DNA of 64,000 nucleotides from Gammaproteobacteria bacterium (GCA_018814405.1 JAHIZO010000005.1:234684-298683), one strand, 5' to 3'. Shown: positions 33,269 to 42,606, counted from the stretch's first letter. Translations and numbers: made by a program. The notes: generated by a model from the letters alone, not told the origin.

Positions 33269-33709
33269 TCAGGCTGCGATCTTCTTGCACTCATCGTAGC
33301 AAGCGATGCACGACTCTTTGCAGGCCTTGCACTCAGGGTGCTTCTCGGTCTTCTTGCATTCCTCTTCGCAGGCCTTGCACACTGCCATACAGACCTTGGC
33401 GAGTTGCGGCAGATACTTGGAATCCGCAGCTGCCATCTGCTGCAAGGCACCACACATCGAGATCACCTGACTGGAAGTCTTTGCGCATTCCGCCATGCTG
33501 GTGTCGCCCTGCCCCAGCAAGACGATGCAATGCTGCAAGCACAGATTGGCTTTGGTCACGCAATCGGCTGCGGCGGCGATCAGCTTGTCGTTCACCGTTC
33601 CCATGACATGGTGCTCATGCCCCATGTCCATATGTTCGTGGCTGGCACCGAATGCCGTACCGGCCGCGGCCATGGCGACTGCACCAAGCAATAGTTCTCT
33701 GCGATTCAT
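33269..33709 (-). CDS. Tat-exported four-helix-bundle copper storage protein (Csp1/Csp2-like)
   Basis: Twin-Arg signal MNRRELLLG..AFG; His/Met-rich linker SHEHMDMGHEHHVMG; 14 Cys in CxxxC/CxxC arrays (ECKACKESCIACYDECKK). Confidence 0.85.
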   Translation of the reverse strand: MNRRELLLGAVAMAAAGTAFGASHEHMDMGHEHHVMGTVNDKLIAAAADCVTKANLCLQHCIVLLGQGDTSMAECAKTSSQVISMCGALQQMAAADSKYLPQLAKVCMAVCKACEEECKKTEKHPECKACKESCIACYDECKKIAA

Positions 33710-33767
33710 GAATATCTCCTCAAATTGATAGGACTGCCAAGCGGACGGCAGTCTATCCATGCGTGAA

Positions 33768-34181
33768 TTATTTGGAAAGCGTGATGAAGGAAAGCTTGGC
33801 GACTCCCGCCTTCTGCGCCAGCGCCATCAACCCCGCCACGCGACCATAAGACACGGCGCTATCCGCTTCGATCTGCAACTGGAACTGCGGATCGGCGGCA
33901 CGAGTAGCCAGCATCGAAGCCAGTTCGGTGTCGTTCACCGGCTGTTTGTCCATCTCCACCTTGCCCTGTGCATCGACCACCAAGCTGACTTGTTGCGGCT
34001 TGTCGTTCTGCTGCACCGCATCGGTCTTGGGTAGGTTGATCTTGAGCGACTGCGGCGCCAGCAGGGGCGCGGTGATGATGAACACCACCAGCAACACCAG
34101 CATCACGTCGACCAGCGGCGTGACGTTGATTTCGCTCATCATGCTGCCTTCATCTTGTTGGGAAGAATTGCCGAAAGCCAT
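33768..34181 (-). CDS. exbD: Biopolymer transport protein ExbD
   Basis: SEINVTPLVDVMLVLLVVFIITAP. Confidence 0.9.
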   Translation of the reverse strand: MAFGNSSQQDEGSMMSEINVTPLVDVMLVLLVVFIITAPLLAPQSLKINLPKTDAVQQNDKPQQVSLVVDAQGKVEMDKQPVNDTELASMLATRAADPQFQLQIEADSAVSYGRVAGLMALAQKAGVAKLSFITLSK

Positions 34182-34190
34182 ACCCCCTCC

Positions 34191-34847
34191 TTACAGCTTG
34201 AAATCTTGCTTTTGCGCCAGACGCATGAAGTCATGCGCGAAGTTCTCAAGGTCCGTCACATGCACCTTGAGGCGACGCAGGAAGAAGTTATACGCCAGTA
34301 CAGCAGGCAAGGCGGTGGCGATGCCGATAGCAGTAGCGACCAGTGCCTCACCGATGGGACCTGCCACCACATCCAATGAAGCGGTTCCAGTCTGGCCGAT
34401 GTTCTGCAAGGCATGCATGATGCCCCACACCGTACCGAACAAGCCGATGAATGGTGCGGTGGAACCGATGCTGGCCAGTTCGGCCAAACCGCGTTCGTGA
34501 TAGCGCTGGATGTTCTGCAATTGTTGACGCAGCATGCGCTCCAGCACGTCTTGCGGCGCGCCGGAATGTTTTAGATCCTGTTGTGCGGAATTCAGGTTCT
34601 TCAATTCTGAGAATCCAGCCTGTGCCAGCCTGGCGATATCGCCTTTGCTCGATGCGCTGATCTTTTCCGCCCCACTCCACTCACGTGCCGCCCAGAATTC
34701 CCTATTGAAGCGCTGGTCATGCTGGCGTGATTCATATTGCTTCCATAGTTTGAACAAGGCGATGGACCAGGTCACGATGGACAAAAAGATCAGCAACAGC
34801 AAAGTGCCCGATACGATGGGTGAGTTGATGGAAAAGAAATCGTTCAT
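34191..34847 (-). CDS. exbB: MotA/TolQ/ExbB proton channel
   Basis: LASIGSTAPFIGLFGTVWGIM, IGEALVATAIG. Confidence 0.9.
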   Translation of the reverse strand: MNDFFSINSPIVSGTLLLLIFLSIVTWSIALFKLWKQYESRQHDQRFNREFWAAREWSGAEKISASSKGDIARLAQAGFSELKNLNSAQQDLKHSGAPQDVLERMLRQQLQNIQRYHERGLAELASIGSTAPFIGLFGTVWGIMHALQNIGQTGTASLDVVAGPIGEALVATAIGIATALPAVLAYNFFLRRLKVHVTDLENFAHDFMRLAQKQDFKL

Positions 34848-34851
34848 GCGC

Positions 34852-35502
34852 TCATTCCTCTAAAGAAAATTTGATGGGTACCAAGAACCACTGTGTGATC
34901 GGCCGGCCGAAGCGCGTGGCGGGTGAGAATTTCCAAGTCTTGACGGTTTGTAGTGCGGCCCTGTCGAGGATGTCGAAGCCGCTGCTGCTTTGCAGTTTCA
35001 CTTCCCCCGCTCTGCCCTCGGCCAGCACTTCGACATTGAGGACCACCTTGCCCTGATAGCCCATGCGCCGTGCCACCAGCGGATACGGCGGGCGCGGATT
35101 GTTCAGATAGTCGGCGCGGTAATCCGGTTCGGCATCCAGTTGCACGGGGGATGGCGGGGTCTCCATCACAGGAGCGGGCGGCGTCTCTTCCTGCACCGCG
35201 GGTTCGGGTGGTGCTTCCGGTTCGATCACGCGCGGTTTGAGTTCCGGTTTCGGCTCGGGCTTGATCTCGGGCTGCGGTGAGACATCCGCCTGCTGCATCT
35301 TCACATTGGCAAAAGAGATGGACATCTCGTTCACCGCCACCATGGGCGGTTCCGGTTGTGCCAGCCAAAAGACGAACAGCATCAGATGCGCGAGCACCAC
35401 GATGCCGACCACAGTCAGCCGCTCGTACCAGGGCGATTCCAGTGTCGCGTCGTGTAACGCGTTCATATATGTCAGCGGCAGGTTGAGAACAAGGGCCGAC
35501 AT
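34852..35502 (-). CDS. tonB: Energy transducer TonB
   Basis: TM segment with His (LAHLML), Pro/Glu-rich linker, PYPLVARRMGYQGKV..SSG..LDRAA..W.F.P. Confidence 0.88.
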   Translation of the reverse strand: MSALVLNLPLTYMNALHDATLESPWYERLTVVGIVVLAHLMLFVFWLAQPEPPMVAVNEMSISFANVKMQQADVSPQPEIKPEPKPELKPRVIEPEAPPEPAVQEETPPAPVMETPPSPVQLDAEPDYRADYLNNPRPPYPLVARRMGYQGKVVLNVEVLAEGRAGEVKLQSSSGFDILDRAALQTVKTWKFSPATRFGRPITQWFLVPIKFSLEE

Positions 35503-35503
35503 G

Positions 35504-37591
35504 CTACCAGCGCCCCTCCAGCGTCACCAGCAAGGAACGATAGCCGACGCTGCGACTGTTCAAGGAATAGACATCACTGCCATTGGTGAAACGCGTGTTC
35601 TGCACGGTATCCGTCGCCAGCAGATTCTTGGCTGTGGTGCGCAGATTGAACACGGGTGACAGTTTGTACAGCCAGTAAGCATCCAGCGTGGTACGCGCAT
35701 CGGACACGGCATACACCTCGCCCGGGATGTCGGTCACGCTGCGCCCCGATAGTTGCAGCGACACGCCGTAACTGGATTTGAGCGTGGGCAAGTTCTCATC
35801 TAGCCCGGCCGAGAATATGTACTTGGGCGTGTCGCGCGCCATGCGCGAGATGCCGAGGCGCGTATCGTTCACCGTAGCATGTGGCAGGGTCAGATGCGCT
35901 TTGACCGTCGCGCCTTTCCAGCCGTAGGCATCGGTGCGCACTTTGCCGTCCAACTCCCAGCCCCAATGACGCGCACTGCCTTCGTTCTGCGGCCTGTCCA
36001 CCCAGCGGGTGCCTTCCAGTTGCACGCGATGCTCGGTGAAATCCTGTGTGCTGCGTGCGTAGAAGTTGAGCCCGAACACACCGGTGTTATCGGGCAGGTA
36101 ACGCTCCAGCACCGCTTCGAAGTTCACGCTACGCTCTGGACGCAGATTAGGGTTGCCGCGCGTGTCGGCTTCCGTCGGTGTGTTCGCCGCCACGCTCAGT
36201 GTTGCGGCATCGCTGATCTCGCTCAGTCTCGGCATCTTCAGCCCGGCACCCAGTGAGGAACGGACTAGCCATTGTTCCTGCGGTGCCCAGCGGATCGCCA
36301 GCGATGGCATCACTTGTCCGTGCTGCTGGGCGACAGTGCCGGTATCTAGATCGACACGTTCGCCGCGCAGACCGTAGGTGAAGGTGGTCTTGTCGGTCAG
36401 CATCCAGTCGTCCTGCAACCACAGGATGCTTTGCCGTTCCTGATCGGCATAGTTGGACGTCACGCCGGAGAAGGTCTGCGTATCGCTGCGTTTCAGCAAG
36501 GCGTGCTCCAGCCCCACCGCCAGCAGATGCTGTTCGCCCAGCGGCCTGTCCAGCCTGAACGCCATGCTGGTTTCGTGCTCGTTGCTGGCGGTGTCATCCG
36601 TGTTTGTACTGGCTGTGCCCACTGCGTCATGCGAAAAACGCAGCACATGCACATCGCGCGTGCCGTGGTTGAGCGAGACGCGTCCGGTTAGCTTGCTGCC
36701 TCCCAGATGTTTTTCGCCTTCCACGCGCAGCCGTTGCAGACGACGGCGCATCTCCTCGCGGCTGCTGCGGTCGCCATTGCTCACCCTATTGCTGCTGCTC
36801 GCCGGACTGGCTGCTGTCTGCGTCATGTCGCTGTTGCGCTTGCCCAGTCCGTCAAACAACAAAGGCGCGACGGTCAACGTGTCACGCCCCTGCTTCCAGG
36901 TCATGCGTGGCGACATCACGAATTCGCGGAAAGTGAACAGGCCTTCCTCCTTGTCCTGCTCGTTCAATACCGTGACGCCAGCTGTCTCGTTGTGTCGCTC
37001 GATCACGCTGCCGGCAGGACGGCGATGCATATTGAGCGTGATCGGCAGCGTCCAGGCAAAGTCGCCCTCGCCGCCGTTCTCGGTCCAGGTGAACTGGCCG
37101 GTCGGCTCATCACCGTTCATGCCGGCGGCCACTTTTACGGCTGTAGAACGTTTGCTGACCGGTTTCTTCATCACCAGATTGACGGTCACCGATGCCGCAC
37201 CGCCGTATTCCGCAGACGAACCGCGCAGTATCTCGACACGCTCCAGCTCACCCGCAGGCAGACGCCCGACCACCCCCGCCACGATGCGCGAACCGCCCGC
37301 CGGCCGTTCGCCATCCACCAGTATCTGCACGCTGTCGCGCGACATGCCGCGCGCGCGGTGTCCGTCGCCTTTGACTTCCACGCCTGGCAACTTGCCCAGC
37401 ACCTCGCCGATGGTCATCACGCCCATGTTCTCGATGTCCTTGCGACCGATGATCACCTTTTGCGTGGTGGAGTCGCGGCGTGCCGCGATGTCTTCCTGCT
37501 TGCCGGTGACGGTGACTTCTTTTAATGAGGGTTGATCTTCCGCGAATGCCAGAAGCGGGAGAAAGGCGAATAACAGACAGCTACGTTTCAT
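35504..37591 (-). CDS. TonB-dependent receptor (second)
   Basis: Signal peptide, TonB box EVTVTG, plug LERVEILRGSS, GNPNLRPE, C-terminal Trp. Confidence 0.88.
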   Translation of the reverse strand: MKRSCLLFAFLPLLAFAEDQPSLKEVTVTGKQEDIAARRDSTTQKVIIGRKDIENMGVMTIGEVLGKLPGVEVKGDGHRARGMSRDSVQILVDGERPAGGSRIVAGVVGRLPAGELERVEILRGSSAEYGGAASVTVNLVMKKPVSKRSTAVKVAAGMNGDEPTGQFTWTENGGEGDFAWTLPITLNMHRRPAGSVIERHNETAGVTVLNEQDKEEGLFTFREFVMSPRMTWKQGRDTLTVAPLLFDGLGKRNSDMTQTAASPASSSNRVSNGDRSSREEMRRRLQRLRVEGEKHLGGSKLTGRVSLNHGTRDVHVLRFSHDAVGTASTNTDDTASNEHETSMAFRLDRPLGEQHLLAVGLEHALLKRSDTQTFSGVTSNYADQERQSILWLQDDWMLTDKTTFTYGLRGERVDLDTGTVAQQHGQVMPSLAIRWAPQEQWLVRSSLGAGLKMPRLSEISDAATLSVAANTPTEADTRGNPNLRPERSVNFEAVLERYLPDNTGVFGLNFYARSTQDFTEHRVQLEGTRWVDRPQNEGSARHWGWELDGKVRTDAYGWKGATVKAHLTLPHATVNDTRLGISRMARDTPKYIFSAGLDENLPTLKSSYGVSLQLSGRSVTDIPGEVYAVSDARTTLDAYWLYKLSPVFNLRTTAKNLLATDTVQNTRFTNGSDVYSLNSRSVGYRSLLVTLEGRW

Positions 37592-37608
37592 CAGGAAGAA
37601 TTGATTGA

Positions 37609-38256
37609 TTAAACAAATAAAAAGATGCGGCGCAATCCCAGCACGATCAGTACCGCGGCTGCGCCCCAGCGTATCCAGCGTGTCAGCCAGTCGCGGTTGT
37701 CGCGCAGCTGTTTGCCGAGCAGGCTGATCAGCGGTAATAGTATCAGCAGCGGTGTGAGCGCCGCGCCCAATCCGAACATCACGCCATTGGCCATGCCAGA
37801 CTGGATGCTACCTGCCGCCGCGCACACAGCGAGCAAGGATGCCAGCGGCGCACAGGGCGTGAGGCTGAGTGAGAAACCGAGCAGCAATGGCGGCGCACTG
37901 CCCGCGCGTTTTGCTACACCGCACGGCGCATGTGCCGATTTACTGCGCAGCAACCACAGCCCGGCGGCGATGGATGCGGCACCGATGACCAGATTGCCGC
38001 TGCCGCCCTTCATCGCCTGCGACAACCAGCTACCCGCCGCTGCAGCCAGCGCACCCAGCATCGTGTAAGCCAGGATGCGTCCGCTGACGAACAGGGTGGT
38101 ATCGCGCAGTGCCTGCATCTGGCTACCGCCCCGCCCCAAGATCCATGTGCCCATGAACGGCAGACAGGTCGCGGTGCAGGCGGTCAGCCCCAGCGATGCA
38201 CCGAGCAGCCACACGGTGAACAGTGTGGTCTGCTGCGATAGTTGTATCGCATCCAT
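37609..38256 (-). CDS. DsbD_2/TauE-like (UreH-like) six-TM Cys-containing membrane protein
   Basis: GLTACTATCLP (CxxxC), GRILAYTMLG, SLTPCAPL, FGLG. Confidence 0.7.
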   Translation of the reverse strand: MDAIQLSQQTTLFTVWLLGASLGLTACTATCLPFMGTWILGRGGSQMQALRDTTLFVSGRILAYTMLGALAAAAGSWLSQAMKGGSGNLVIGAASIAAGLWLLRSKSAHAPCGVAKRAGSAPPLLLGFSLSLTPCAPLASLLAVCAAAGSIQSGMANGVMFGLGAALTPLLILLPLISLLGKQLRDNRDWLTRWIRWGAAAVLIVLGLRRIFLFV

Positions 38257-38260
38257 CGGT

Positions 38261-39322
38261 TCAGCCCTTGTTCTCTGCCGGTTTGGGCAGGATGGGGATC
38301 ACGCGCTTCTTGGGCTGACCTTCCGGCGATTCATGTTTCACCCGTGCTTTGTAGTAGTCACGCGAAGAGCCGAACAGTCTGAAGCCGAAGAACTTGAGTT
38401 GGATCACATCATCGTCCGGACAGTATTCGGCGCAACGTCCGCACATCGTGCAATCCTCGTGGAAGGCTTTGCTGCCGAACGCGGTGCCGATCTCGTGGAT
38501 GTCCATCGGACAGGCTTTCTCGCACACGCCGCACTTGGCGCATTTTTCGTGCGCATCCTTCTTCACCAGCCGCATCGGCGACAGTTTCTGGAACAGCGCG
38601 TTCCAGGACAGCAGCGGGCAGATGCGGCAGAACGGCTGACGCACGGCCAGCGCGGCGATGATGATGAAGCCGAACATGGCATTTCCCAGCGCACCGAGGA
38701 AGAAATTGATGTTCGTTCCGGTGCGCACGGCGAGTTGTTCGGTATCCGCCGTCAGCAAGGTGGTGGCGATACGCGACGGGCAGACCTGGCAGAACGGGTC
38801 GCCCAGTTCGTTGGCGACGGTGCCCATGCCGGCCAGTGTCGGCAGGCCCAGTACCAGCACCAGCAACATGAACCATTTGACCGGACGCACCGTGCCAACG
38901 CCCTCCTTCGTGAAGCGTTGCAGCGGACGGCCGAGGCGGCGACCGATCTTGTAGATCAGTTCCTGCACCGTGCCCAGCGGACAGACCCAGCCGCAGAACG
39001 CTTTGTTCAAAAAGAAGAAGAACATGAAGAACACACCCACCGTGATCAGTGTGGGCAGGAACACGTTGAGCGCGACATCGCCCGCCTTGGCCAAGGCTGC
39101 CCCGATACGGTGATGCAACTGGTGTTGCGCACTGATCAGGATGCAATGGTCACCGGTCACTTTATCGTAGGCGCATGACAGGGACGGCAGCGCCTTGGAG
39201 ATGCGATCCACGGTGTAACTGCCAAGCAGCGCGCCGCCGTACACGGTGACGAACAACATGATGATCTGCACGGTGAAGCGCAAACGCGCCAGCGTGGGGA
39301 AGATATTCTTAAGCATTTGCAC
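38261..39322 (-). CDS. NapH/MauN/CcoG-like membrane 4Fe-4S protein
   Basis: FCGWVCPLG, FCQVCP, FCRICP, two ferredoxin motifs (CAKCGVCEKACP, CTMCGRCAEYCP) and several TM helices. Confidence 0.82.
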   Translation of the reverse strand: MQMLKNIFPTLARLRFTVQIIMLFVTVYGGALLGSYTVDRISKALPSLSCAYDKVTGDHCILISAQHQLHHRIGAALAKAGDVALNVFLPTLITVGVFFMFFFFLNKAFCGWVCPLGTVQELIYKIGRRLGRPLQRFTKEGVGTVRPVKWFMLLVLVLGLPTLAGMGTVANELGDPFCQVCPSRIATTLLTADTEQLAVRTGTNINFFLGALGNAMFGFIIIAALAVRQPFCRICPLLSWNALFQKLSPMRLVKKDAHEKCAKCGVCEKACPMDIHEIGTAFGSKAFHEDCTMCGRCAEYCPDDDVIQLKFFGFRLFGSSRDYYKARVKHESPEGQPKKRVIPILPKPAENKG

Positions 39323-40196
39323 TCTCCTCTTTCCTGGCGGCTGTCTTGCGATTACGCAGCAATGGTGCAGCGCCGAGCATGCCGACTAGCATGAAGCCCA
39401 TGCCCATCGCCAGACTGCGATTGGCATACGCATCTTCGCCATAGCCGCTGTTGAAGGCGGTCAGATATTGCAGACCGCCCTCGGCATGCGACACCGCCAA
39501 CACGAAGTCGGCGCCGCGTCGCCTGCCATGGCTTTCCACCTGCGCTGCTTCAGCCTTGAAGTCGTTCGGCACCTTCACCTTCACCCCGCCGAGCGCATCG
39601 GTCATGAATTCGGACCGGCTGCCGTTCGAGGTTTCCAGCACGACCTTTTGCGCAACCAGCGGCTGGCCTTTGAAACGCACGGCGAACTGCCAGTCTTCAT
39701 TGGTGCGGTAGCGGGAATGCTCACGCGGATAGGGTTGCGGCACAATCTCCAGCTCGTGCTTGACCTGCTCGAACATGGCGGTCGGGTTCTTGCCGCCGCG
39801 TTCGCTGAAGTAATGCACGGTGGTGGCGACACGCACGACATCGCCCTGCTCTTCGCGTGCGGTCAGCATCTGAAAGCCGCCAGTGGCGGGTTTGTCCAGC
39901 GGCGCACCGCCCATCTCCATAGGCAGTCGACGATGTCCATTCGGGTCATTCAAGTCGTTCGACCAGGCTTCGACCGCATCCGCCGCGATGTTCAGCGGCT
40001 GCATGAGGTAACTGCGCGATGACATATCCTGACTTTTCATGCGCGCTTTGAGTACGGGCAGTTGCGTCCAGGCGCGGGACTGGCTACGCATCATGGCACT
40101 GTGGTCGTGGGTTGCCATCGCAGCGGGTTCGGCAGCGGAGGCTGTCGCGGTGCAAGCCACGAGCAGACAAGCGGAATAGAGGATTCTCATAGTCAT
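39309..40196 (-). CDS. Secreted, C-terminally membrane-anchored DUF4198-like protein
   Basis: Signal peptide (..TASA), THDHSAMM, DUF4198-like F.VRFKGQPL..V..TD..G, C-terminal TM LAMGMGFMLVGMLGAAPLL. Confidence 0.6.
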   Translation of the reverse strand: MTMRILYSACLLVACTATASAAEPAAMATHDHSAMMRSQSRAWTQLPVLKARMKSQDMSSRSYLMQPLNIAADAVEAWSNDLNDPNGHRRLPMEMGGAPLDKPATGGFQMLTAREEQGDVVRVATTVHYFSERGGKNPTAMFEQVKHELEIVPQPYPREHSRYRTNEDWQFAVRFKGQPLVAQKVVLETSNGSRSEFMTDALGGVKVKVPNDFKAEAAQVESHGRRRGADFVLAVSHAEGGLQYLTAFNSGYGEDAYANRSLAMGMGFMLVGMLGAAPLLRNRKTAARKEESANA

Positions 40197-40199
40197 CCC

Positions 40200-42482
40200 T
40201 TAGAAGCTGAGCGATGCGCCGATTGTCCACACACGACCCGGATTGACCGTGATGGACACGTCTTCCGCGTCGTACACGCCGTCGCCGTTGCCGTCCGAAC
40301 CGCCACGGATGGTGGAGTAGTAATAGCGGTCGAACAGGTTGTCGATACGTGCGAAGGCCGACCATTTCATCTTGCCGTCACTCTTGAACTCGTAGTTCGC
40401 CATCATGTTGTAAACGGTACGGCCACCTACCCACACCACGTTCACTTCATCCGCATAGATGCCGGATTGCGTGTTCATCTCGCCGGTGAAGATCCAGCCT
40501 TCCATCGGGCGATAACGCGAAGTCAGATTCAGTTTGTGTTTGGGCGTGCGCGGCACGACATTACCGGTGTTGTTGTACAACACCGAAGCCAGCGGCACGC
40601 TGCGTGAGCCCATTGACATCCAGTAGGTGTCGTTGCGTGTGAACACGGCATTCAGGTAGGTGTACGCCATATCGGCAGACCAGACTTCGCGGCTATCGGT
40701 TTTGATGGAAACTTCCAACCCGCGATTACGCACGCCGCCGATGTTCTGGTATTGCTCCAGCGCGTTGGTCAGCGTCGCACCTGTGGTGGATTGGTATTGA
40801 CCGCCGGTGTTGAGGATGAAGTCCTTGCGGTCGATCTGGAAGATCGCCACATCGGTATCCAGCCCGACACCCAGCAACTCAGTCTTGGCGCGCAGGCCGA
40901 CTTCTGCGTTGTAGGAATGCTCGGGCTTCAGATCCGGATTGGCGGCCACCGTCCCTGTCGGGGTGATGGTGCCGCCGTATAGCTGTGACACGGTCGGCAC
41001 GCGGAAGCCGGTGGATAGATTGGTGTACAGCTCGCGTTCTTCGTTGAAGGCATAGTTGAAGCCGATTCGTTCCGACAAGACGTTGAATGTCTTCTCACCC
41101 GTGGTGCTGCGACCCTCGGCGATCTGCGTTGCGGTGAGCGGCAGATTGCTGACGTACTTCTGACCGATATTGTCGAAGCGCGCATTGAAGGTGGCGGTGA
41201 GCGGTGTGCTCAATTGCCATTTCAATTCACCGTAGATGGCGCGCGTGTCGGAGGTGGAAAGGCTATCCTCGGTCAATGCGCCAGCCAGATTCAACGGATT
41301 GGAGAATCCTACTGCGGTGCTGCGGCTGGTATAGGTCACTAGGTTGTTGGTCAGCGTACGATCCTCGAACTGTTGCAGATCCAGACCGCCCATCCAGGCG
41401 ACTTGCGTGCCGCTCTGGCGCCATTCCGCCTTGGCACCACTCTGCTGCTGCTGTGTATCTCGTCCGCTGACATAGGCATCACGCATGGTGCTCATGTCGC
41501 TGGCGGTCGAAGTGCCATACAGGAATGCGCCCGTGCTGTCGCGCAGGAAGCCGTTCGGGTTCTGCCAGCCGAAAGTGTGATCCTTGAACAGATAGGTGTT
41601 CACCATCAGGTTGCTTCCTGTCCCCGTGTCCTTTGAGTAGGACAGGTTGAACTTGTCCAGCGTCACATCGTATTTGCGCGCGTAGTCCTTGCCGCCGTCC
41701 ACACTGGTCGGATCGAGCATGGCAGCCGTCACGCCTTTGACCGTACCGTGGCTATCCTTGTTGCGGAGGGCATGCTCGAAGCCAAAGGTCATATCGCTGG
41801 TGTCATCGATCATGTACTGCAACTTGCCATCCACATAGTCGCGCCCCCAGTCACCCTGATCGTGAAAGGTCTTGGATTGCAGCTTGGATTTCTGGATGTG
41901 CCCCACCCAGCGACCTTCGGCGAATCCGGCGCGCAGGACGCCTTTGTAATATTCATAGCTGCCGACTTCGGCGCTGGCCATGTAGCCCGCCATCTTGGCG
42001 CCGCGTTTGGTAGTGATGATCACCGCACCAGACAGTGCATCCTCACCGAACAGATAAGAGGCCCCGCCCTTGATGACCTTGATGGATTCGATGTTGTCCA
42101 AGTCGATGTTCACACGCCCGGTGCGCTCCTGCACCGGCACACCGTCGATCACGATGGCCACACCCGGCTTCTCGCCCATGTAGCGCTGCGCCTCGACACC
42201 GCGCAGCATGATCTTCACCGAGTCGCCGCTCTGTACTTCGGCCGAAACACCCGGGATGGATTCCAGCACTTCGACGATGTTCTTGCTGTGTTGCTCGTCG
42301 ACGGTGTTACCGCTGATGTGATTCACATTAGAGGGTTCGCCGCGCTTGGAATCGAAGCGGTCGTCGATGGTAGTGGATGAAACGGTCACTTCCGGCAAAG
42401 CGCCGATCTCGGCCCAGCTTGCTTGCGGTGCGGAAAGTGCCAAGGCGACACATATTGCGATCTGTTTGCTGCTTGTCTTCAC
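40200..42482 (-). CDS. TonB-dependent receptor (first gene of the cluster)
   Basis: GTG start after GGAGG, signal peptide, TonB box EVTVS, plug IDGVP..NIESIKVIKGG..GAVIITTK, NPDLKPE, C-terminal Phe. Confidence 0.9.
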   Translation of the reverse strand: MKTSSKQIAICVALALSAPQASWAEIGALPEVTVSSTTIDDRFDSKRGEPSNVNHISGNTVDEQHSKNIVEVLESIPGVSAEVQSGDSVKIMLRGVEAQRYMGEKPGVAIVIDGVPVQERTGRVNIDLDNIESIKVIKGGASYLFGEDALSGAVIITTKRGAKMAGYMASAEVGSYEYYKGVLRAGFAEGRWVGHIQKSKLQSKTFHDQGDWGRDYVDGKLQYMIDDTSDMTFGFEHALRNKDSHGTVKGVTAAMLDPTSVDGGKDYARKYDVTLDKFNLSYSKDTGTGSNLMVNTYLFKDHTFGWQNPNGFLRDSTGAFLYGTSTASDMSTMRDAYVSGRDTQQQQSGAKAEWRQSGTQVAWMGGLDLQQFEDRTLTNNLVTYTSRSTAVGFSNPLNLAGALTEDSLSTSDTRAIYGELKWQLSTPLTATFNARFDNIGQKYVSNLPLTATQIAEGRSTTGEKTFNVLSERIGFNYAFNEERELYTNLSTGFRVPTVSQLYGGTITPTGTVAANPDLKPEHSYNAEVGLRAKTELLGVGLDTDVAIFQIDRKDFILNTGGQYQSTTGATLTNALEQYQNIGGVRNRGLEVSIKTDSREVWSADMAYTYLNAVFTRNDTYWMSMGSRSVPLASVLYNNTGNVVPRTPKHKLNLTSRYRPMEGWIFTGEMNTQSGIYADEVNVVWVGGRTVYNMMANYEFKSDGKMKWSAFARIDNLFDRYYYSTIRGGSDGNGDGVYDAEDVSITVNPGRVWTIGASLSF

Positions 42483-42551
42483 TGCTTCCTCCTTGAATAT
42501 CCCTGTTTGAAACCGGGTCGGATTGTAGGAAGCGAAGCAGACGGCGGGAAT

Positions 42552-42581
42552 GTGACATGATGTCGCGCGGCGGATTGTCGC
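42552..42581. promoter_or_regulatory. Two tandem RegA/PrrA-type boxes (putative)
   Basis: GTGACATGATGTCGC immediately followed by GCGGCGGATTGTCGC. Confidence 0.5.
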
Positions 42582-42606
42582 ACCCCCTATCCGCTATAAT
42601 CCGCCG

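Follow-up and report, generated by a model that had tools for sequence, protein, structure and literature searches.

Organisation of the operon

We analysed a 64,000-nt stretch of a Gammaproteobacteria bacterium genome (GCA_018814405.1, JAHIZO010000005.1:234684-298683; henceforth the window, in which operon positions are counted) that carries an operon of nine minus-strand genes, g1 to g9, at 42482-33269. These genes encode two TonB-dependent receptors, an exported protein with a DUF4198-like fold, a membrane polyferredoxin, a DsbD_2 membrane protein, a dedicated TonB-ExbB-ExbD set and a protein of the Csp1 family of copper storage proteins. Given this gene content, the conservation of g2-g3-g4 in related loci, the repeated linkage of such loci to copper genes and a shared operator, we consider copper to be the best-supported and likely substrate of the operon. 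The names of the closest homologs and of related loci suggest that the host is an iron oxidiser of the family Gallionellaceae; its assembly amounts to 2.38 Mb in 10 contigs.

All nine open reading frames are present and co-oriented, with intergenic spacings of -14 to +17 nt from g1 to g8, and an intrinsic terminator at 33244-33223, detected in a terminator scan (9-bp stem with 5 G-C pairs and a T-rich tail), closes the operon. The receptors g1 (40200..42482, 760 aa) and g5 (35504..37591, 695 aa) both have Plug and barrel domains. Between them lie g2 (39309..40196, 295 aa), recognised by fold and motifs, g3 (38261..39322, 353 aa) and g4 (37609..38256, 215 aa; 69.1 bits to DsbD_2, PF13386, with a cut-off of 24.9). 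Downstream of g5 follow TonB (g6, 34852..35502; TonB_C, 81.6 bits), ExbB (g7, 34191..34847; MotA_ExbB, 125 bits), ExbD (g8, 33768..34181; ExbD, 102 bits) and csp (g9, 33269..33709, 146 aa). An earlier note, made from the sequence alone, had described nine closely spaced, co-oriented genes ahead of a strong terminator, in the order receptor, anchored periplasmic protein, Fe-S protein, CxxxC membrane protein, receptor, tonB-exbBD and csp; the reading frames bear out this layout, and Pfam and NCBIfam scans the order. One gene start had to be moved: csp, previously thought to begin at 33760, starts at 33709, where an AGGAG followed by ATG AAT CGC AGA is conserved in all related loci.

A Csp1-family protein with its own promoter-like element

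The product of g9 scored 146.4 bits against the Csp1 family model TIGR04401 (curated cut-off of 100), and its best match in PDB was Methylosinus Csp1 (5fjd, 80.7 bits), aligned over the full length and with its Cys in register. A twin-arginine translocation (Tat) signal, MNRRELLLGAVAMAAAGTAFG (RRELLL), can be seen in the sequence, and the mature protein has 14 Cys, in agreement with the earlier description as a Tat-exported, 14-Cys four-helix bundle. In being an exported, Cys-lined four-helix bundle g9 resembles Csp1 of Methylosinus trichosporium OB3b, whereas its setting differs: the gene forms part of a TonB uptake operon, in an iron oxidiser that lacks particulate methane monooxygenase.

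The 58-nt gap before csp holds a promoter-like -10 hexamer, TAGACT (33755-33750), and a hairpin (33753-33732), together occupying 33732..33755 on the minus strand. A TAnACT element lies 70-85 nt before the csp ATG in nearly all related loci (L002-L059), whatever the upstream gene, and the hairpin that comes after it varies in sequence between loci and keeps its pairing. The element and the hairpin may constitute csp's own promoter and structured leader. Independent transcription of csp, which the earlier note had set as a ground for abandoning its interpretation, may thus partly hold.

Fold, motifs and topology of g2, g3 and g4

Against Pfam DUF4198 (PF10670) g2 scored 24.8 bits, below the cut-off of 34 and over residues 128-211 only, and we base its membership on fold rather than on this score. 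In a Foldseek search with its AlphaFold 2 (AF2) model (predicted local distance difference test, pLDDT, of 74), the best PDB match was the zinc-binding DUF4198 protein Zcp (9mhl; E 6e-9, target-normalised TM-score 0.60), and the next unrelated match stood at E 2.6e-5 with a TM-score of 0.21. The protein has a signal peptide and a C-terminal transmembrane helix (261-280) with a basic tail; its conserved motifs are an HxH or HGGH at the N-terminus and an invariant PREH. Of the earlier description as a His/Met-rich, anchored periplasmic protein, the anchor stands, as that one C-terminal helix; the His/Met-richness is found at the N-terminus only.

Zcp, the first DUF4198 protein to be characterised, binds zinc and in vitro also cobalt, nickel and copper through H29, H31 and H142 (PMC12663993), and a member from Ideonella, IsDUF4198, prefers nickel (PMC12537917). 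What g2 has in common with these proteins is the fold and, as probable ligands, an N-terminal HxH and a later His; the His residues of its N-terminal HxH/HGGH and of PREH are conserved, with the comparison to the Zcp site limited by an N-terminus modelled at a pLDDT below 50. It differs in being only 12% identical, under the Pfam cut-off and anchored by a C-terminal helix, and in belonging to a redox operon, whereas Zcp and IsDUF4198 stand alone under Zur or beside NikR. The modelled fold suggests a periplasmic binder of divalent metal and does not by itself specify the metal.

The second core protein, g3, matched Fer4_5 (PF12801) at 48.6 bits (cut-off of 22), and its CX3CP and two CxxCxxCxxxCP motifs are invariant. 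The earlier assignment as a NapH/CcoG-like 4Fe-4S membrane protein is upheld as far as a Fer4_5 polyferredoxin goes and fails in its specific comparisons: the NapH/MauN model TIGR02163 gave 59.6 bits against a cut-off of 213, and the Pfam matches were to Fer4-type families only, with no match to FixG_C, the C-terminal domain of CcoG. The genome also encodes a separate CcoG-like gene. All 16 Cys of g3 are invariant in 26 homologs, down to 28% identity, and the family is narrow (21 relatives at E<1e-30 among 1.84 billion representative proteins). Its AF2 model (pLDDT 84) matched no solved fold in a structure search. From hydropathy and charge distribution we predict four transmembrane helices, with the Fe-S domain and the CX3CP and CX2CP motifs on the cytoplasmic side and the invariant C50, C60, C178 and C181 in two periplasmic loops.

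In g4, a CxxxC(L/M)P motif lies in the first transmembrane helix and PCxP in a later one, and C27/C31 and C135 are conserved in distant homologs. The protein also matches DsbD_TM (Pfam) and an ArsG-type model (NCBIfam); its Cys arrangement appears to be of the CcdA/DsbD type, which is also seen in predicted thiophilic-metal permeases. Searches of the g2, g3 and g4 sequences against PDB returned nothing useful, and in particular no solved relative of g4.

One explanation of this pair is that copper is indeed the substrate and stays periplasmic, with g3 and g4 exporting reductant in the manner of CcdA/DsbD so as to keep the Cys of Csp1, of Sco (encoded near some related loci) and of the g3 loops reduced. 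This would agree with the retention of both CcdA-type motifs of g4 (CLP in the first transmembrane helix, PCxP later) in distant homologs and its match to DsbD_TM, with the four invariant g3 Cys in predicted periplasmic loops, with the presence nearby of partners that need reduced thiols (Csp1 with 14 Cys, Sco with CxxxC) and with a thioredoxin-like gene beside some Gallionella loci. However, CcdA/DsbD proteins normally draw their electrons from thioredoxin and need no polyferredoxin, many loci with the module have no Cys-rich partner nearby, and the DsbD_2 family also holds predicted thiophilic-metal permeases, to which the ArsG-type match of g4 relates. We regard reductant export as a rather doubtful account of g3 and g4.

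The two receptors

Neither g1 nor g5 matched the OprC/NosA model TIGR01778 in an NCBIfam scan; the genome's own OprC (contig C8, 81350-83386) scored 731 bits to it. Each of the two receptors has a single Cys, in the N-terminal signal region, and no further Cys, and therefore no Cys/Met site of the OprC kind. In a PDB sequence search the closest solved structures to g1 were PhuR and Cir, both weak matches, and the PqqU model gave 142 bits against a cut-off of 1200. As judged by tblastn, g1 lies upstream of the core in most related loci, and g5 occurs in a subset only.

In L119 (9840-12131), and also in L033, L037 and L043 (names of the form L0xx-L2xx denote related loci), the module is adjoined by a receptor family whose plug carries a Cys-x-x-His-Met motif, ISACGNHMNPPLSYIDP; judged by its residues, the motif appears reminiscent of the OprC copper site. 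For the receptor type present in L119 and L104, the nearest solved structure was PqqU/YncD (133 bits).

Conservation of the core and its copper-gene neighbours

A scan of one genome per species yielded 59 loci with a g2 relative, and all those whose records are named more finely than phylum or order belong to Gallionellaceae, except two from Methylotenera. We labelled genes in these loci by tblastn of the nine operon products, and g1-g2-g3-g4 was found in all those of sufficient length, usually with TonB-ExbBD next. A profile search of metagenome contigs added g2-g3-g4 triads in relatives whose g3 is 43-60% and whose g2 is 26-49% identical; in most of them a receptor gene lies upstream. Among 60 loci with enough flanking sequence, in which some metagenome loci may duplicate genome loci, g2 and g3 were present in 60/60, g4 in 58/60 and ExbB in 47/60. 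The invariant core is g2-g3-g4, usually accompanied by a TonB-dependent receptor, in Gallionellaceae and distant metagenome relatives alike, and the second receptor g5 and TonB-ExbBD are variable members.

A csp gene was present in 31 of the 49 Gallionellaceae-type loci, which account for all csp cases among the 60, and its position differed: it stood behind exbD, immediately behind g4 or ahead of g1. Of 61 sampled family genomes (G0xx), 13 encode a g3 of the operon's type (type 1), with csp within 10 kb in nine (two of these nine copies are degraded), and six encode a 30%-identical type-2 paralog of g3, with csp within 10 kb in four. In a 2.5-Mb genome, a single-copy gene would by chance fall within 10 kb of a particular site in fewer than 1% of cases. 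At the same time, the distant copies have no csp, and in 17 of the 30 family genomes that do carry csp it lies apart from such clusters, so csp is a frequent add-on outside the core. At type-1 clusters csp was seen as a short remnant with an in-frame TGA (G001, C10 286983-287111) and split into two (G002, C1 708216-709989). These remnants, together with close relatives that have no csp (L001, L003 and L004), indicate that csp is being lost repeatedly.

Copper markers were found in 35 of the 60 loci. Sco and PCuAC genes come after g4 in L111 and L170, and in L119 they are found immediately ahead of the receptor; Sco scored 144 bits in Pfam and the two PCuAC proteins 112 and 66 bits. A DUF2946 gene, from the family to which the copper-sensing leader CruR belongs, stands before the receptor in L104 and L119, and an OprC-type receptor follows g4 in L047, L116 and G013. 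Over about 90 loci, all metal-specific neighbours that we recognised were copper genes, i.e., Csp1, Sco, PCuAC, DUF2946 and OprC, and we saw no nickel, cobalt, zinc or iron marker among the neighbours of related loci. The earlier note had asked whether homologous clusters usually lack csp or other copper genes, and this survey speaks otherwise.

The same survey bears on the proposal that another transition metal (nickel, cobalt, zinc or iron) is imported and that csp is a mere neighbour. Characterised DUF4198 proteins bind nickel (Ideonella) or zinc (Zcp), DUF4198 genes elsewhere respond to zinc or iron limitation, and the DsbD_2 family reportedly includes UreH-like predicted nickel permeases, as Rodionov described in 2006. 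However, the recognised metal-specific neighbours are all copper genes, the operator described below is common to OprC-PCuAC and ccoN, Rfam detected no cobalamin or other riboswitch (two weak matches, to a microRNA family and to ssnA, were chance), and no Fur-, Zur- or NikR-like box was noticed when the promoter was inspected by eye. We find import of another metal highly improbable.

A double operator shared with oprC and ccoN

Upstream of g1, an operator at 42546..42583 (minus strand) consists of two abutting 15-bp palindromes, box 1 at 42581-42567 (GCGACAATCCGCCGC) and box 2 at 42566-42552 (GCGACATCATGTCAC), followed by ATTCCC. It lies approximately 24 nt upstream of the likely -10 hexamer of the operon, TACAAT (42522..42527), which we identified by eye and by conservation in the upstream regions of orthologs, where TACAAT or TAGAAT is kept at equal distance; no sigma-70 consensus was detected at g1 in a promoter scan. 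The alignment of g1-ortholog upstream regions gave the consensus GCGACAnnnTGyCGC + GCGACAnnATGyCAC, and the double operator was conserved in 21 of 23 such regions with diverging flanks. It is also conserved upstream of type-2 operons.

We judged box occurrence by exact-pattern counts and conservation across genomes. When the genome was scanned with a 38-nt matrix, the operon site (score 61.5) was the only match above 18 bits. Across the 61 family genomes the double-box pattern occurred at 52 distinct sites, compared with 0 for a reversed control: 13 at type-1 clusters, 8 at type-2 clusters, 12 next to regBA-like genes (some of them extra paralogs located beside csp or a cluster), 3 near csp, 2 at oprC and 14 elsewhere. 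A single box (11/12 matches) stands upstream of both the OprC-type receptor gene and ccoN in the operon's own genome; in the family, 12 of 13 genomes have the box ahead of their OprC orthologs, some of them in full double form, and about 12 of 30 have it ahead of ccoN.

Published RegR sites (e.g., TGCGACATCGGCGGC; PMC4064962 Table 1) resemble the box, as does the "degenerate GCG inverted repeat" of PrrA/RegA (PMC4263372). By a wide margin, the top matches of the genome's RegA/RegB-like proteins were to NF033791 (203 bits, cut-off of 250) and NF033792 (250 bits, cut-off of 350). A RegA-like regulator is encoded in 60 of the 61 family genomes, and its presence alone therefore proves nothing. A classical association exists between the RegBA/PrrBA locus and SenC/PrrC, a Sco homolog. 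Because the operator is shared with OprC-PCuAC and ccoN and resembles RegR/RegA sites, we read the operon as a RegA-type target: it appears to be switched on by a respiratory redox two-component system of the RegB/RegA type, and may be a primary target of this regulator within one regulon that also takes in OprC-PCuAC and the cbb3 oxidase, with binding by RegA inferred from the sites.

Several further sites were seen alongside. On the genome's contig C8 (79340-84448), a RegB/RegA-like pair, whose RegA-like gene occupies 79340-79870, is divergent from the OprC-type receptor gene and two PCuAC genes, the first of which encodes a His/Met-rich tail, with one box in between. On contig C1 (275380-275640), ccoN has a perfect FNR box, TTGATATATATCAA, at -247 and a RegA-like box at -113. 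Elsewhere the double operator precedes further TonB receptors (L204, L197) and, in L205 and L206 (G023 and G051), a ThiO-like flavin adenine dinucleotide oxidoreductase; the sampled genomes of the latter genus gave no cluster, csp or ccoN match.

A swapped core in sister genomes

Four other family genomes (L182-L185, in G040 C11, G055 C8, G003 C4 and G020 C38) share a frame of g1, g5, TonB, ExbB, ExbD, csp and pntA with the operon, at 52-86% identity, and carry the double operator upstream. Within this frame they have a different core, made up of a DUF4198-like protein, the 30%-identical g3 paralog, an HGD-D protein, a BcrAD-type ATPase and a DsbD_2 protein; Sco is found in one of the four. 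For the HGD-D protein, the double-cubane cluster protein of Carboxydothermus (6eno) gave a match of 215 bits. Because the same frame holds a different core, the two cores look functionally interchangeable.

The double-cubane protein and ATPase of the type-2 module suggest difficult reductions, and could be explained if the receptors imported a non-metal small molecule, redox-active or sulfur-containing, that needs reduction, with the copper genes being co-regulated respiratory accessories. The receptor type of L119 and L104, nearest to PqqU/YncD, and the weak PqqU match of g1 point the same way. However, that g1 match is far under its cut-off (142 vs 1200 bits), the module invariably includes a periplasmic protein of DUF4198 fold with a putative three-His site, and the genes around it encode metal chaperones. 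A non-metal substrate is, in our view, very unlikely.

Proposed pathway for copper acquisition

Copper is also the metal that the earlier note had preferred to nickel or iron, and that preference is supported by csp in 31/49 loci, by Sco, PCuAC, DUF2946 and OprC and by the shared operator; the identity of the metal is inferred from such sequence evidence. For the operon as a whole, we lean towards copper acquisition for the biogenesis of heme-copper (cbb3) oxidase, by the following mechanism. One or both receptors, powered by the operon's own TonB-ExbBD, would import copper across the outer membrane, probably in a chelated or complexed form. Membrane-tethered g2 would capture Cu(II) at a Zcp-like three-His site next to the inner membrane, and g3 would move electrons from its cytoplasmic Fe-S domain to the four periplasm-facing Cys and reduce the copper to Cu(I). 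The g4 protein would then either conduct Cu(I) through the inner membrane or recycle thiols, and Cu(I) would land on periplasmic carriers, here Csp1 as a buffer or store, elsewhere Sco and PCuAC. Every step of this path, including the direction of electron flow and the roles of g3 and g4, is a proposal.

Several observations weigh against this pathway. ATP-driven, low-potential chemistry of the double-cubane kind exceeds what the reduction of Cu(II) needs, and the reductive step may act elsewhere than on the metal ion; this chemistry of the swapped core is the main point that the pathway leaves unexplained. The DUF4198 proteins characterised so far bind zinc or nickel and not copper specifically (PMC12663993, PMC12537917). 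The receptors g1 and g5 are not of the OprC type and have no OprC-like Cys/Met site. A copper marker is missing within the flanks of 25 of the 60 related loci, the close relatives L001, L003 and L004 have no csp, and csp itself has a promoter-like element. Finally, the RegA-like regulator scores under its NCBIfam cut-off (203 vs 250 bits), and its putative link to the box is one of adjacency and motif likeness.

A bolder version of the pathway would make g2-g3-g4 a new inner-membrane machine for metal processing, in which g3 frees and reduces copper from a recalcitrant imported complex, g4 is a Cu(I) conduit, and the core is swapped elsewhere for an ATP-driven double-cubane version. We offer this version tentatively, as possible rather than probable.

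Comparison with known systems

Bacterial copper acquisition, unlike detoxification, is poorly known. To our knowledge, only OprC and CrtA-CrpH link outer-membrane copper import to respiratory oxidases. In a literature search that covered DUF4198, as well as Csp1 in combination with TonB-dependent transport, Gallionellaceae or polyferredoxin, no account of the gene set turned up, in agreement with the earlier view that the combination is not a characterised system.

The closest described system is cruR-crtA-crpH of Bordetella pertussis, which pairs a receptor for chelated copper with a PepSY_TM reductase (PMC9426467, PMC12914433, PMC13038864). CrtA and the reductase CrpH supply heme-copper oxidases, and crpH partly overlaps in function with the polyferredoxin ccoG (PMC12914433, PMC13038864). 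The present module shares this logic with different parts. Both combine a TonB-dependent receptor with an inner-membrane redox protein (for heme-copper oxidases, on the reading proposed here), and some copies of the module have their own TonB-ExbBD, Sco and PCuAC; a DUF2946/CruR leader before the receptor is shared by two distant copies only (L104 and L119). On the other hand, no PepSY match was obtained among the nine products, which have a polyferredoxin, a DsbD_2 protein and a protein of DUF4198 fold instead. Neither g1 nor g5 was recognisable as CrtA-type (the PDB matches of g1 are only the weak ones to PhuR and Cir), and the operon has a RegA-like operator rather than a copper-sensing leader, with Csp1 attached. 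The upstream gap of 124 nt is too short for a leader gene.

With OprC/NosA (TIGR01778) the module would share copper import across the outer membrane; the two have the same operator in the family, and an OprC-type gene sometimes lies within the cluster (L047, L116, G013). The difference lies in g1 and g5, which do not match that model and whose only Cys are in the N-terminal signal region. The CcoA-CcoG-CopZ-CcoI-SenC/PccA route of Rhodobacter offers a likeness in CcoG, a Fer4_5 polyferredoxin acting as cupric reductase beside an inner-membrane copper importer, and would have the same target enzyme. In contrast to CcoG, g3 has no FixG_C domain and has extra, predicted periplasm-facing Cys, and g4 does not belong to the major facilitator superfamily of transporters.

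If the pathway is correct, it would represent a third outer-membrane copper route, built from unrelated components, in iron oxidisers and diverse metagenome contigs, and would place copper supply under the respiratory redox sensor RegBA. It would also explain what a DUF4198 subfamily, a DsbD_2 subfamily and a distinct family of polyferredoxins do, and would connect storage in periplasmic Csp1 with uptake in bacteria other than methanotrophs. The core swap offers a practical way into the double-cubane reductase, an orphan enzyme; on the bolder version of the pathway, scavenging of trace metals where conditions are microoxic and rich in sulfide or iron would be the first physiological role assigned to it.

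Neighbouring genes

The operon is flanked by mutL, divergent on its upstream side, and, past the hairpin terminator, by pntAB. Since the adjacency of pntAB is not kept in Gallionella loci, it looks coincidental. Downstream of g4 or csp, six related loci (L021, L026, L033, L043, L045 and L054) carry a trio of genes for a TonB receptor, a BNR-type propeller (417 aa) that contains the motifs CECC and CPHH, and a thioredoxin-like protein. Some type-1 clusters (L007, L017 and L030) adjoin a gene for cytochrome c' (PF01322, 121 bits).

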